This document shows positions 1 through 14,364 of a stretch of 14,426 nucleotides of DNA, one piece after another. Source of the DNA: a virus. The notes under the pieces were generated by a model. That model did not search any database and had not been told where the DNA came from. It saw only the letters and a list, made by a program, of their open reading frames with translations. How positions within the stretch are numbered: position 1 is the stretch's first letter; every line of letters begins with the position of its first letter. Made by a program: the position numbers and the translations under genes. Where the stretch lies: UHGV virus genome UHGV-0061697. One strand, 5' to 3'.

Positions 1-24
1 GTTATTAGTTATCTTATTCTCAAA

Positions 25-52
25 TTGTGTTACGATAATCAGAGCTGATAAT
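25..52 (+). promoter_or_regulatory. Candidate sigma70 promoter for telN (-35 TTGTGT 25-30, -10 GATAAT 47-52, 16-nt spacer)
   Basis: Hexamers read directly from sequence; GGAG Shine-Dalgarno about 8 nt before the ATG at 66. A direct repeat GATAATC occurs at 34-40 and 47-53. No experimental support. Confidence 0.3.
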
Positions 53-65
53 CTGGAGAGGAAAG

Positions 66-1979
66 ATGAGCAAAGTAAAAATCGGTGAATTAATAAACTC
101 ACTTGTTAGCGATGTTGAGTCAATAGATAACTCTGACCGTCCTCAAGGGGAAAAAACAAAAAAAATAAAGGCTGTTGCATTAAAATTTAAAAATGCATTA
201 TTTAATGACAAGCGAAAGTTTAGGGGGAAAGGATTAGAAAAAAGAATTACAGCCAACACATTCAATGCCTATATGAGCAGGGCCAGAAAACGGTTTGATG
301 ATAAACTTCATCATAGCTTTGAAAAAAATATACATCGCCTATCTGAAAAGTATCCTTTATATAATGAGGAGCTATTGTCATGGCTTTCTCTACCTGCTGC
401 CGATATTCGCCAGAGAATGTCAGCTTTACAGGCAAAATTAAAATTAATTCTCCCTTTATCAGAAGATTTATCTAATATCAGAATTGGTGATAACAAAAGT
501 CATAATAAGTTATTAAAATTATCAAATAAATATAAAGAGTGGCAATTCGCCATATCTGATTTAACTAGCGATAACTGGAAAGATAAGCGCGATTATTTAT
601 ATAAATTACTACAGCAAGGATCTGCCTTACTTGAGGAGTTGAATCAGCTAAAAGTTAACCATGAGATTCTCTATCATCTTCAACTAAGCCCTGCCGAACG
701 CGCATCTATCCAGCAACGATGGGCGGACGTTCTGCACAATAAGAAACGTAACGTGGTGGTCATTGATTACCCTAAATATATGCAAGCTATTTACGATATT
801 ATAAATAGCCCTGCTACATTAAATAATCTAAACACTCGTTCAGGTATGGCTCCTTTGGCATTTGCACTTGCAGCATTGTCAGGAAGACGAATGATTGAGA
901 TTATGTATCAAGGTACATTTACTGTTTCTGGTAAGTATACCGTTGATTTTTTAGGCCAAGCAAAAAAAAGAACTTCTGATGATATAACCAGAAAAATATA
1001 TACATTATGCGAAGCAAAAACATTTGTTTATTTAATAAATGTACTTCGCTCATGCCCAGCAGCATCTGATTTTGATGATGTCGTTAAAGGTTATGGAGAT
1101 AACGACACACGCTCTGAAAACGGACGGATTAATGCCATATTAGCAAAGGCTTTTAACCCGTGGGTTAAATCATTTTTCAAAGATGACCGCCGTGTTTATA
1201 AAGATAGTCGTGCTATTTATGCCCGTATTGCGTATGAAATGTTTTTCCGCGTAGATCCTCGTTGGAAAAACGTAGATGAGGATGTTTTCTTTATGGAAAT
1301 TTTAGGCCATGACGATGAAAACACTCAATTACACTATAAGCAATTCAAGCTGGCCAACTTCTCAAAGACATGGAGGCCAAATACTGGAAACGAAAATACC
1401 AGGCTGGAAGCATTGCAGCAGCTTGATGACGAAATGCCAGGATTCGCCAGAGGAGATGCCGGGGTTCGTCTGCATAACACAGTTAAGCAGCTGGTAGAGC
1501 AGGACCCCTCTATAAAAATCACGAACAGCACTCTAAGAGCATTCAAATTTAGCCCTACAATGATTAGTCGATACCTGGAATTTGCTGCTGATGCTCTGGG
1601 GCAATTTGTTGGCGAAAATGGACAATGGCAGCTGAAAATAGATTCTCCAGAAATCGTTATGCCTGACGAAGAAGAGCTGGAAGCAATACCTGAACAGACG
1701 GATGAATTATCAGAGGATGACGATCTGGATGACGACGAAATTGAGATAGAGGAAGAGGAAGAGGAAGAGGAAGAGGAAGAGGAAGAGAGCGTAGAAGAAC
1801 AGCAACCGCCCGCGCCTTCTTCACCTGTATCTAAGCCGGTATTTAAGCCCGTGAGAAATATTGGTGATGGCTCATACGTTGTTGAGTTTCATTATAATGG
1901 CCAGAATTATGCTTGGTCCGGCATTGCAAACAGCCCTATATCAGCAATGCAGTTAGCATGGCTGACATATTTCGGATAA
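66..1979 (+). CDS. telN: Protelomerase (telomere resolvase) TelN, 637 aa
   Basis: Full-length ORF from track. N-terminus MSKVKIGELIN...RPQGEKTKKIKA...NALFNDKRKFRGKGLEKRITANTFNAYMSRARKRFDDKLHHSF and the C-terminal half (...RVYKDSRAIYARIAYEMFFRVDPRWKNVDEDVFFMEILGHDDENTQLHYKQFKLANF...) match my memory of phage N15 TelN almost residue for residue. Length is about that of N15 TelN (about 630 aa). GGAG RBS upstream. Identity is from recall, not a database search. Confidence 0.9.
   Translation: MSKVKIGELINSLVSDVESIDNSDRPQGEKTKKIKAVALKFKNALFNDKRKFRGKGLEKRITANTFNAYMSRARKRFDDKLHHSFEKNIHRLSEKYPLYNEELLSWLSLPAADIRQRMSALQAKLKLILPLSEDLSNIRIGDNKSHNKLLKLSNKYKEWQFAISDLTSDNWKDKRDYLYKLLQQGSALLEELNQLKVNHEILYHLQLSPAERASIQQRWADVLHNKKRNVVVIDYPKYMQAIYDIINSPATLNNLNTRSGMAPLAFALAALSGRRMIEIMYQGTFTVSGKYTVDFLGQAKKRTSDDITRKIYTLCEAKTFVYLINVLRSCPAASDFDDVVKGYGDNDTRSENGRINAILAKAFNPWVKSFFKDDRRVYKDSRAIYARIAYEMFFRVDPRWKNVDEDVFFMEILGHDDENTQLHYKQFKLANFSKTWRPNTGNENTRLEALQQLDDEMPGFARGDAGVRLHNTVKQLVEQDPSIKITNSTLRAFKFSPTMISRYLEFAADALGQFVGENGQWQLKIDSPEIVMPDEEELEAIPEQTDELSEDDDLDDDEIEIEEEEEEEEEEEEESVEEQQPPAPSSPVSKPVFKPVRNIGDGSYVVEFHYNGQNYAWSGIANSPISAMQLAWLTYFG
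1749..1787. repeat. Tandem hexanucleotide repeat (GAGGAA)x6 plus partial unit inside telN, encoding a poly-Glu tract (13 E)
   Basis: Directly visible: gaggaa repeated six times from 1749 to 1784, then gag. In frame, so slippage would change tract length by two Glu per unit. Confidence 0.95.
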
Positions 1980-2107
1980 AGCATGGCCGTAGAATCAATA
2001 CCCGCCGCCATACACACATCAGATGCAACAAACCACGGTTCGCCGTTAATCATCACTACACGAACCTGATGCTCTTCCTGAAAGGAAAATACTGCTAACG
2101 CGCTCAT
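1907..2107 (-). CDS. Short BRO-N-like antirepressor N-terminal fragment (66 aa), possibly a truncated antB-like gene
   Basis: The N-terminus MSALAVFSFQEEHQVRVVMINGEPWFVASDVC resembles the start of BRO-N/antirepressor domains (F-x-F...VR...I-x-GEPWFVA-x-DVC). The ORF ends after 66 aa and its last 73 nt lie on the opposite strand of the telN 3' end. The ATG overlaps the stop of the upstream gene (ATGA). Confidence 0.45.
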   Translation of the reverse strand: MSALAVFSFQEEHQVRVVMINGEPWFVASDVCMAAGIDSTAMLYPKYVSHANCIADIGLFAMPDQA

Positions 2108-2337
2108 TCAGCCTCCTTATCGTGCAGCAATTGCGACGAGAGCGATGCTGAATAACCCTGTGCTTCGTGTGTGAGCTCACACGCAATTTGAAGAAGTTTC
2201 CCTGCTTCTGAGAGATAAATCGACGCCTCACAACTGGAGATTGTCCGATGGGCTGATGATACGAGCGCATAGACCTGAGCCAGACGTTCATCCAACGATT
2301 CCAGCAGGCCAACAGTGTTCATTTTTACCTGATTCAT
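2104..2337 (-). CDS. Hypothetical 77-aa protein, middle gene of the immA-like operon (antA-like by position)
   Basis: ORF from track (MNQVKMNTVGLLESLDERLAQVYALV...). Start and stop both form ATGA overlaps with neighbours (icd-like upstream, BRO-N fragment downstream). The antA assignment is positional inference only. Confidence 0.45.
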   Translation of the reverse strand: MNQVKMNTVGLLESLDERLAQVYALVSSAHRTISSCEASIYLSEAGKLLQIACELTHEAQGYSASLSSQLLHDKEAE

Positions 2338-2498
2338 GCAGCCACCTCGCGCACCGGAATACGGGCAGACAATACCAGGACAAACCGGCTGGCGAACTGG
2401 CGACGAGCTTCCCGTTCAGATGACGCGATGGTGGAAAGATGATGGATGTGTGACTTTTTGTCTGTGCGAACGATTGCCGCAAATTTGAATTTGAACAT
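2334..2498 (-). CDS. icd: Icd-like small protein (cell-division inhibitor family of P1/N15 anti-immunity operons), 54 aa
   Basis: Not in the ORF track as such; I derived it by translating the minus strand from the ATG at 2498..2496, which has a GGAG about 8 nt upstream: MFKFKFAAIVRTDKKSHIHHLSTIASSEREARRQFASRFVLVLSARIPVREVAA. The S-E-R-E-A-R-R core and L-x-L-S-A-R-I-P-V tail match my memory of Icd-like proteins. Stop overlaps the next ATG. Confidence 0.55.
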   Translation of the reverse strand: MFKFKFAAIVRTDKKSHIHHLSTIASSEREARRQFASRFVLVLSARIPVREVAA

Positions 2499-2549: not shown

Positions 2550-2632
2550 ATATGGCGGTAGCCCAGACGGGGGTAGGAATACCGGTAAACGAAGAAACCG
2601 GCCAGCTAAAAGCTGCCCCATCTGAGCCACCA
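2550..2632 (-). ncRNA. Candidate c4/CA-like antisense immunity RNA in the leader of the icd operon (boundaries approximate)
   Basis: About 370 nt of non-coding leader upstream of icd on the minus strand. It contains stable hairpins (CCGGU-N10-ACCGG, CAGCU-UUU-AGCUG), a tRNA-like 5' segment (GGUGGCUCAGAUGG), and an element UUCCUACC complementary to two identical copies of GTTCCTACGC (plus strand 2538-2547 and 2704-2713) that flank it. This arrangement recalls the P4 CI and P1 c4 systems. Ends were not determined. Confidence 0.3.
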
Positions 2633-2796
2633 TAAATTTGGTGTACGCAGATTTTACACACAAAAAAACACGCTGGCGCGTGTTGTGCGCTTCATTTACT
2701 CGGGTTCCTACGCCCGGCTACGGGATTTACCGTAGCGGAGTAAACTTTACCGTCAAAACGACGCGCACGTCAATAATTTGCAAAGACATTTTACCC

Positions 2797-2874: not shown

Positions 2875-3183
2875 TTACTGATTAAGAGATTGGAAATACC
2901 TAACTAACTTACCGGCATCATCACATTTTTCTTTATCTTCGTTCTTAACATAGCCGCGACAAAAGGCTGAATAAAATTTTGCATTTTCAGAAGCAAAAGC
3001 AGCCGTCGAAAGGAGCAGCTCTTTGCATGACTCTTTTGATGCAGCATCGGGATTATTTTTACATGCAAGCTCCGCTGATGAGTTAATAACAGAAATGCTA
3101 TCTTCCTGGGCATAAACCGCAGCAGAAAAGGCAAAACATAAAACAAAAATAAAACTCTTCACTTTATCTCCTGTAACAGTCAT
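2875..3183 (-). CDS. Small secreted Cys-containing protein (about 102 aa, predicted signal peptide)
   Basis: ORF from track. N-terminus MTVTGDKVKSFIFVLCFAFSAAVYA-QEDS has the n/h/c layout of a Sec signal peptide with an AxA-like cleavage site. Mature part has 4 Cys. No lipobox. ATG at 3183 preferred over GTG at 3186. Confidence 0.5.
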   Translation of the reverse strand: MTVTGDKVKSFIFVLCFAFSAAVYAQEDSISVINSSAELACKNNPDAASKESCKELLLSTAAFASENAKFYSAFCRGYVKNEDKEKCDDAGKLVRYFQSLNQ

Positions 3184-3189
3184 CACAAT

Positions 3190-9253: not shown

Positions 9254-9938
9254 ATATATACGCAGCTGCGTCTCTACGGCATTGGCTGATGTTCATTATC
9301 GCCAGCGTGGCATTCTGGAGGTCCAGCTTGAGCAGATGCGTCTCGGTAGATCAGGACGGTTTAACAATAAACCAGTCCGGTCAATCAGTGTGGGGGATGA
9401 TAACTCATACGAAGTGTCCGTTCCTGCTGAGCCGGTTAGATTCCATCAGGGGAAAACATTTAAACAATCATCAATGTTGCTCACTGATATTGATTTTCAG
9501 AGCGCCAGCTGGCGCAGGGCTATTGGTCAGTTGAATAACGAGGAATCAGCCTGGCTTTATTATTGCTACGGATGCAAGCCTGATTACAACAATGATGTGA
9601 TTGTTTGTCAGTGGTTATGGCTTCATTCGGGGGGCGGCTTTAAAAAAATGAAGGCCTCCACGAAAAAAGCCATGCGGAAATTGATTTATTACGCGGCACA
9701 ACAGGTTAAATCAGAACTTACGTGTGCTGAGGCAGTTGATGAGAGAGAACAGGACAGGCATCTGAGTTTTCTACTGAATATATCTATTGATAGCTGGAGA
9801 CAAGATTATAAAGAACGCTGGCTTTTAATTAAGTCGCGATGTCTGAGCTTAAATCGAACTGCATTATTAAATGCGGCGGAGAAGCGCAGTGAAATCATCA
9901 AACGCCATCGGGCAGGAAGTGCCATTCTGCCTTTGTAA
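9243..9938 (+). CDS. Putative Q-like late antiterminator (231 aa); assignment positional
   Basis: ORF from track with GTG start and AAGGAG 10 nt upstream. It follows cro as Q does in the N15 immB region (cB, cro, Q). I cannot confirm family membership from sequence alone. Confidence 0.4.
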   Translation: MELEYIRSCVSTALADVHYRQRGILEVQLEQMRLGRSGRFNNKPVRSISVGDDNSYEVSVPAEPVRFHQGKTFKQSSMLLTDIDFQSASWRRAIGQLNNEESAWLYYCYGCKPDYNNDVIVCQWLWLHSGGGFKKMKASTKKAMRKLIYYAAQQVKSELTCAEAVDEREQDRHLSFLLNISIDSWRQDYKERWLLIKSRCLSLNRTALLNAAEKRSEIIKRHRAGSAILPL

Positions 9939-13179: not shown

Positions 13180-13262
13180 TTTTCAGGAGGATTTATGGCG
13201 CTGACACCGGCAGAACGGCAAAGGAGACGCAGGACTGGATTCTAGAACCTGACGAGTTACGT

Positions 13263-13487
13263 ATGTTGGGGGAAATTTGTGTATTGCGTAGACCAGGGCG
13301 AGTTCCATATTCGGAGAACGAAGTCATTGGTTTGCTGATCAGGAAAAACTATAAGGAGCTGCAGAAGCAGCTATCTACTACTTGCCCGCGATGTGGTCAA
13401 AAAATGCCTGTTTCAGAATGCATTTTTGATGGCGAAGGGTCATGCCACCTTACAACCACGAGGCTGAAACTTGCGCTCAAAGCGTGA
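13263..13487 (+). CDS. Hypothetical small Cys-containing protein (74 aa; CPRCG...C...CH); possibly the 3' part of a disrupted gene
   Basis: ORF from track. No Shine-Dalgarno before the ATG, whereas a strong AGGAGG precedes a 16-codon ORF (13195-13245) in another frame just upstream. Confidence 0.35.
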   Translation: MLGEICVLRRPGRVPYSENEVIGLLIRKNYKELQKQLSTTCPRCGQKMPVSECIFDGEGSCHLTTTRLKLALKA

Positions 13488-14076: not shown

Positions 14077-14364
14077 TTAATAAACAGCGCGAATATCGAT
14101 GGTTGCGCCGCAGGCATGAGCATATTTAGCCAAAGTTTTCATACTTGCCCCTAAAGGATTGCTTTCCAGGCGGCTGATGGCTGACGGTCGCAACCCCATT
14201 CGTTCAGCCAGAGCTGATTTCGTTAAACCTGCTCTTTCCCTCATTTCGTATAACATTTCGACCATCTCCAGCTCTTTGTCGGCCTCTTCATATCCTTTGA
14301 CGGCTTCTGGAGTGTTGAGGAGTTTTTCTTTTACTTCGTTAAACGGGATGCCTTTCGCTTTCAT
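14077..14364 (-). CDS. HigA-like antitoxin, XRE-family HTH (95 aa)
   Basis: ORF from track; HTH GLTKSALAERMGLRPSAISRLE. The ATG overlaps the stop of an upstream minus-strand ORF (TGATG) and has AAGGAG upstream. Confidence 0.65.
   Translation of the reverse strand: MKAKGIPFNEVKEKLLNTPEAVKGYEEADKELEMVEMLYEMRERAGLTKSALAERMGLRPSAISRLESNPLGASMKTLAKYAHACGATIDIRAVY

Follow-up and report, generated by a model that had tools for sequence, protein, structure and literature searches.

We suggest that the 66-aa open reading frame (ORF) overlapping the 3' end of telN on the opposite strand is, very probably, a non-functional remnant left behind by deletion of antB, the BRO-N gene with which the immA operon of N15-like linear plasmid-prophages ends. 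Two successive losses would account for its present form. A first deletion of 738 bp (deletion 1) would have shortened antB to a 54-aa remnant in an E. coli/Shigella lineage. A second deletion of 82 bp (deletion 2) would next have taken away the last 13 codons of this remnant together with its stop codon, the spacer and the terminator. From there, the reading frame would run on by chance for 25 codons, antisense to the telN C-terminus, until it meets the first stop codon.

A BRO-N fragment at the end of an immA-type operon

The window, i.e. the whole 14,426-nt stretch of DNA analyzed here, belongs to an N15-like (Ravinvirus-type) linear plasmid-prophage, of which it represents the telN-proximal end. 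Over its entire 14,426 nt, it is 98.9% identical to the E. coli plasmids CP104505.1, CP088810.1 and CP145143.1, and its start lies 33 nt away from the end of the linear CP104505.1 record. The telN product bears four Pfam domains (TelK_N, TelK_muzzle, ResT-TelK_cat and TelK_stirrup), and the telN end (window positions 1401–1984) shows 96.6–97.3% identity to YDC107_1 and PhiR46_1. In addition to telN and repA, the window encodes a CB-like HTH/S24 repressor, Cro and Q (231 aa). The coordinates of the features discussed below are collected in Table 1.

Table 1. Features of the window, with coordinates, strand and the basis of each assignment.
Feature	Coordinates	Strand	Basis
telN protelomerase, 637 aa, intact, stop codon 1977–1979	66..1979	plus	ORF and Pfam
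antB-remnant ORF, 66 aa, ATG start	2107..1907	minus	ORF listing
Codons 42–66 of the antB-remnant ORF and stop (1909..1907), homologous to no AntB	1907..1984	minus	translation comparison
Deletion junction AAAGCAT/GGCC	1982..1985		alignment with 7 remnant-carrying relatives
antB codons 1–41, the sole part homologous to BRO-N/AntB	1985..2107	minus	nucleotide comparison and Pfam/PHROG
antA homologue, 77 aa, intact, TGA stop overlapping the antB ATG	2337..2104	minus	ORF and similarity
icd-like ORF, 57 aa from GTG	2507/2498..2334	minus	ORF and PHROG 1743, 6928
cA RNA, C4-family antisense RNA	2637..2551	minus	Rfam RF01695, 73.6 bits (gathering score 45), full model length
Leader hairpins with intrinsic terminator	2736..2663	minus	Rfam isrK RF01394, 62.5 bits, and terminator scan
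Sigma-70-like promoter	2773..2744	minus	consensus scan
repA, 1331 aa	8098..4103	minus	ORF

An earlier note on this DNA had described the 66-aa ORF as the third gene of an immA-type operon, which our analysis supports. On the minus strand, a promoter, leader hairpins with a terminator, a C4-family cA RNA, an icd-like gene, antA and the 66-aa ORF follow each other, so that a C4/cA RNA lies in the leader and intact icd and antA genes lie downstream, as in N15-type immA. The promoter/leader arrangement is that of N15, in which the terminator is annotated. The cA RNA region shows DNA similarity to the cI region of P4 and the cA region of N15; by analogy, the cA RNA would be the secondary immunity repressor of N15-type immA. 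Orthologues of the icd-like ORF in relatives are annotated as 54-aa proteins ("host cell division inhibitor Icd-like"; PGAP, CP104505.1). The AntA homologue shares 66% identity with N15 gp31 across 70 aa (E 2e-30) and matches PHROG 6301 (E 1.7e-36) and PHROG 10889, labeled "anti-repressor" (E 1.1e-18). The "ImmA" of PMC12042878 is a telocin immunity protein and unrelated to the immA locus.

The start ATG of the 66-aa ORF at position 2107 overlaps the stop codon of antA (ATGA), and inspection of the sequence revealed a Shine-Dalgarno motif, AAGGAGG, preceding it. Likewise, antB of N15 and YDC107_1 is the last gene of immA, is convergent with telN and has an ATG overlapping the antA stop codon. 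The locus is syntenic with N15, YDC107_1 and the plasmid relatives; as the third ORF of immA, with an antA-coupled start and nucleotide homology, the 66-aa ORF occupies the orthologous position and descends from antB. Full-length antB at this position encodes 258 aa in YDC107_1 (AUO37525.1) and 264 aa in N15 (gene 30, gp30), and AntB versions of 257–261 aa are encoded by four Escherichia plasmids (E. coli, E. fergusonii, E. albertii). In the ancestral arrangement, antA is followed by antB (~260 aa) and then by a bidirectional hairpin terminator facing telN. A 60-aa "hypothetical protein" annotated in YDC107_1 (L002 1942..2124), which overlaps the telN end, has no Pfam match and spans the terminator; we consider it an annotation artefact.

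Profile comparisons agree with the BRO-N-like start and the stop after 66 aa described in the earlier note, as well as with its reading of the ORF as a truncated remnant. The 66-aa ORF aligned with positions 1–39 of the 96 positions of Pfam Bro-N (PF02498) with 25.1 bits (E 2.7e-5), slightly below the gathering score of 25.6. It matched nine PHROG families (E down to 2e-14), eight of which are labeled anti-repressor; eight of the nine matches end at residue 40–41 and one at residue 48. A complete, above-threshold BRO-N domain (~96 positions) was not found in the 66-aa ORF by Pfam scan, and the ORF possesses neither the C-terminal region beyond BRO-N nor the length of 257–264 aa typical of AntB. 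In comparison, the three full-length AntB relatives that were scanned (YDC107_1, N15 gp30 and CP135212.1) each bear a complete Bro-N domain, with 61.6–77.8 bits over positions 1–96 or 2–96 of 96. A PDB sequence search with full-length AntB of YDC107_1 gave no match.

Alignment with N15 and relatives, as the earlier note had proposed, showed that a full-length antB exists and located the limit of homology. Codons 1–41 (123 nt) are identical to the corresponding part of the 54-aa remnant gene of CP104505.1 and differ at 6 of 123 nt from full-length antB of YDC107_1. In the window, antB homology ends at codon 41, which is exactly the deletion junction. In codons 42–66, the frame crosses a 5-nt spacer and then reads the C-terminal codons of telN in antisense, and the final 73 nt of the ORF (1907..1979) are shared with telN, as had been stated before. 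By translation comparison, the window reads ...DSTA/MLYPKYVSHANCIADIGLFAMPDQA followed by a stop codon, whereas the relatives read ...DSTA/IRKLDEDEKG... at this point. An identical junk tail is seen in CP088430.1, where it arises via an unrelated frameshift. In the three frames antisense to telN, 14–43% of the open runs reach at least 25 codons; a run of that length is a chance expectation and unremarkable.

Two probable deletions between antB and telN

Deletion 1 (L002 2031..2768; CCC microhomology) took antB codons 52–258 and 110 nt downstream, leaving a 54-aa ORF (AntB residues 1–51 plus three junk residues), the hairpin terminator and a 45-nt spacer. The product is the 54-aa "BRO family protein" WP_001542490.1 of PhiR46_1, CP104505.1, CP088810.1, CP101200.1 and a Shigella sonnei plasmid. 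Its gene stops 45 nt before telN, with the terminator hairpin in between, and does not overlap telN. The exact 54-aa protein occurs on at least 1000 contigs and belongs to a cluster of 51 variants. Spans of query coverage fit the 54-aa architecture in 13 of the 17 matching RefSeq complete E. coli records and in 17 PLSDB records, with seven records checked by alignment and the remaining ones by coverage spans. A large lineage of E. coli and Shigella is fixed for the deletion-1 allele, and the pipeline-annotated "BRO family protein" of this phage-plasmid lineage is a gene fragment.

The WP_001542490.1 remnant and the window ORF are the same truncated allele, their first 41 codons being nucleotide-identical (CP104505.1). 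However, while relatives of the CP104505.1 type keep AntB residues 42–51, their own stop codon, the 45-nt spacer and the terminator, the window has lost the 82 bp in question. Across the remnant segment, the window is equal base for base to CP104505.1 and CP088810.1, with the exception of this gap. The missing 82 bp (L004 1780..1861) were lost between two AT dinucleotides (2-nt microhomology), and the junction (1984/1985) lies 5 nt past the telN stop codon at its rightmost and 3 nt past it at its leftmost placement. They hold remnant codons 42–54 and the stop codon, the spacer and the hairpin AAAGGCACCGAATTATCGGTGCCTT, whose folding energies in the relatives are -24.4 kcal/mol on one strand and -19.9 kcal/mol on the other; the telN/immA hairpin of N15 gives -22.7 and -17.7 kcal/mol. 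By terminator scan and folding, no equivalent of the telN/immA terminator hairpin was found in the window. As the 82-bp loss breaks the sequence 3–5 nt after the telN stop codon, the frame reads through, by chance, antisense to telN.

Compared to antB of YDC107_1 and N15, the window is devoid of codons 42–258, comprising more than half of BRO-N and the entire C-terminal part, and of the downstream terminator. In a BLAST comparison with YDC107_1, window positions 1401–1984 correspond to L002 1402–1973 (96.6% identity) and positions 1983–2585 to L002 2793–3397 (91.8%), the latter match beginning inside antB; relative to full-length YDC107_1, 819 bp are missing. One 819-bp loss from a full-length ancestor outside the present sample would also produce this sequence, but it is less parsimonious than two steps, as every close relative already carries deletion 1.

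Small-gene and artefact readings of the overlap

The earlier note had alternatively considered a gene constrained by its overlap with telN. The idea of a real small gene, with a 3' end shaped by constraint from or co-evolution with convergent telN, would be in keeping with the 66 open codons, the good Shine-Dalgarno motif and the coupling to antA; nevertheless, we regard it as barely credible. None of the relatives has a 66-aa ORF or an antB ORF overlapping telN, the homologues being either 54 aa long without overlap or 257–264 aa long. The tail of the ORF is without homologue, and finding 25 open codons antisense to telN requires no explanation beyond chance. Among ~15 billion proteins, the 66-aa protein forms a singleton cluster that contains the window contig alone. 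The junction pattern TTTCGGATAAAGCATGGCCGTAGAATCAATACC had no exact match in the genome, viral and metagenome contig collections, nor did any PLSDB or RefSeq E. coli record align over the window junction without interruption. ORF length and sequence conserved among relatives, as expected of a functional antisense overlap, were not observed. Homologues of the same length and conserved through the overlap were looked for, and none was found; the interpretation as a remnant therefore stands.

A more serious concern, although still an unlikely one, is that the overlap itself is an artefact, i.e. that the real molecule contains the 54-aa remnant, the spacer and the terminator, and that the junction stems from read chimerism, from an artefact of the library or from a rare variant that was assembled at very low coverage. 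The window contig stems from a metagenome assembly (SPAdes NODE_412_length_14426_cov_2.200682; ENA ERZ1689702) and has a k-mer coverage of 2.2, and neither the junction nor the 66-aa protein was seen anywhere else in the collections scanned. Furthermore, the contig has two other private deletions, one of 15 nt in Q (at 9623; 1-nt microhomology) and one of 34 nt at 13232, with 2-nt microhomology, that shifts the frame of a hypothetical gene; the segments concerned are kept in 29 of 29 PLSDB relatives. Compared to its nearest relative, the window has also lost a copy of a 15-nt tandem repeat. Given the 2.2-fold coverage and the two other private microdeletions, the second deletion is possibly private or an artefact as well. 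On the other hand, a de Bruijn assembler needs at least one spanning read to join sequences over a 2-nt overlap. Moreover, the long ORFs repA (1331 aa), telN (637 aa) and Q (231 aa) are intact, indicating that the contig is not generally error-ridden. Deletions of this type, arising by illegitimate recombination, are common in nature, and deletion 1 is of the same character. The 82-bp deletion may have arisen as a mutation private to this molecule, may represent a minority variant or may be an artefact at the read level. Whether it is real or an artefact, the overlap with telN is accidental and not an evolved feature.

A different question is whether the N-terminal BRO-N fragment, 54 aa long in the lineage and 66 aa long in the window, is kept as an active micro-protein, either as a residual module binding DNA or protein or with a dominant-negative effect on full-length BRO/Ant proteins of rival phages. 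The presence of the exact 54-aa sequence on so many contigs, its status as the majority state of complete E. coli N15-like plasmids, the retained translation signals and the synonymous nature of its three nucleotide polymorphisms would be consistent with such a role. Yet we consider it very improbable, as the remnant covers ~40 of the 96 Bro-N profile positions, the neighboring non-coding DNA is equally invariant, and the window version has its last 13 remnant residues replaced by junk. In addition, the 54-aa cluster includes variants at conserved residues (W25R, within the conserved PWF motif, S8Y and G36D), and two records carry a frameshifted remnant, possibly due to sequencing errors.

All three nucleotide sites that vary among carriers of the 54-aa form fall within the remnant on its antA-proximal side. 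Divergence among these carriers amounts to 0 of 45 positions in the adjacent non-coding spacer, 0.3–0.7% at the telN end, 7.3% in antA and ~12% in the leader. This gradient indicates a recombination breakpoint and recent spread rather than constraint. As the adjoining non-coding DNA is equally invariant, the low diversity of the remnant is best explained by recency and hitch-hiking. Taken by themselves, the three synonymous differences could hint at constraint; however, they come from a very small sample and are accounted for by recombination with full-length alleles. An argument for selection on the remnant based on these three differences was rejected in view of the gradient in flanking divergence. 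Judging from these comparisons, we see no good evidence for selection on the 54-aa remnant.

Implications for anti-immunity and the role of antB

Due to the strong Shine-Dalgarno motif and the ATGA coupling to antA, translation of the peptide probably persists whenever the operon is expressed. With less than half of the BRO-N domain and without a C-terminal domain, the stub should be inert or degraded. In N15, AntA alone lifts CB repression and raises the copy number, and thus acts as the antirepressor (PMC2847241), while the role of AntB "has not been elucidated" (PMC4488713, PMC10612081). The suggestion of the earlier note that the anti-immunity operon is partly decayed is correct with respect to antB, which is lost, but does not extend to antA, icd and the cA RNA, which are intact, AntA being the proven antirepressor in N15 (PMC4488713, PMC10612081, PMC2847241). 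With AntA, Icd and the cA RNA intact, the anti-immunity function should, by analogy with N15, be retained in the window; the sole gene lost from the operon is antB, the last one, which is dispensable.

Related elements do without this gene altogether. PY54 lacks antB (PMC4488713), and in the Klebsiella phage 48ST307 antB is cleanly absent, with antA followed directly by a terminator hairpin and then by telN; in both, immA functions with antA (plus icd) and no BRO-N gene. In contrast to this clean absence, the window bears a scarred antB remnant and no terminator. The absence of antB in 48ST307 and PY54, together with the remnant described here, indicates that antB is an accessory, repeatedly lost gene.

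If the 82-bp deletion is real, its sole plausible consequence is that the convergent telN and immA transcripts are no longer separated by a terminator, in which case read-through or antisense effects between telN and immA would be possible. Two bolder readings strike us as far-fetched: one in which the BRO-N stub is a retained micro-protein (e.g. an inhibitor of rival full-length BRO/Ant proteins), and one in which terminator loss in this contig creates a new antisense or transcription-interference link between telomere resolution (telN) and the anti-immunity switch (immA).

The apparent overlapping gene is thus a deletion scar, which matters little on its own, and a remnant of a known accessory gene is already-known biology; private microdeletions in metagenome contigs of low coverage call for caution. 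Of wider relevance is the recurrence of antB loss: most complete N15-like plasmids of E. coli have it deleted and 48ST307 and PY54 lack it, while antA, icd and cA are retained. This repeated loss supports the idea that AntA, and not the BRO-N protein, is the essential anti-immunity effector.

Divergence around the antB scar

Among the relatives carrying the 54-aa remnant, the deletion allele of antB, the BRO-N gene that ends the immA operon (plasmid/phage sequences L003-L009, compared from the telN end to the immA leader), divergence is below 1% across the telN end and the spacer. Because it then jumps to 7% in antA and 12% in the leader, these alignments indicate that recombination had a breakpoint in the antB scar or close to it. 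They also indicate that the deletion allele occurs on two different antA/cA backgrounds. Klebsiella phage 48ST307 (L014 1986..2267) differs in that it lacks antB entirely, antA being followed by a perfect hairpin and then by the telN stop, and is a clean example of an architecture without this gene.

Features of the window and of 48ST307 (L014)
Feature	Sequence	Coordinates	Strand	Details
antA	L014	2040..2267	minus	
Perfect hairpin	L014	1989..2020		between antA and telN stop
Acidic GAG/GAA (poly-Glu) repeat	window	1745..1790		telN C-terminal region
C4/cA RNA	window	2551..2637	minus	immA leader
Rfam isrK match with intrinsic terminator	window	2663..2736	minus	62.5 bits
Small ORF	window	2875..3186	minus	103 aa from GTG; N-terminus signal-peptide-like
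Deletion in gene Q	window	9623		15 nt, in frame, 1-nt microhomology, vs CP104505.1
Loss of single copy of 15-nt tandem duplication	window	11732		vs CP104505.1
34-nt deletion	window	13232		2-nt microhomology, vs CP104505.1

Length variation and contig ends

The telN GAG/GAA repeat varies in copy number among relatives; in the window it is 6 nt longer than in CP104505.1, a closely related E. coli plasmid, and 12 nt longer than in phages YDC107_1 and PhiR46_1. The three deletions relative to CP104505.1, which are private to this contig and come in addition to the one at the antB scar, may be real or may be artefacts of the contig, whose k-mer coverage is 2.2; the segments missing from Q and at 13232 are both retained in 29 of 29 PLSDB relatives. 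At 13232, the loss frameshifts a 108-aa hypothetical gene, leaving a 74-aa ORF (13263..13487). At its start (1..65) the window lies 33 nt in from one terminus of the linear CP104505.1 record, near the hairpin telomere, and it breaks off at its other end (14077..14364) within an HTH-antitoxin/RelE-ParE toxin pair.

Cargo region and immA leader

The 103-aa ORF is part of the variable cargo segment that separates immA from repA, and its homologue in PhiR46_1 is annotated 'Spackle exclusion protein'. In the immA leader, the isrK match and its terminator sit immediately upstream of the C4/cA RNA, and the same terminator is annotated in N15. The isrK family, named after a Salmonella sRNA, appears to represent the leader of the phage anti-immunity operon (immA).
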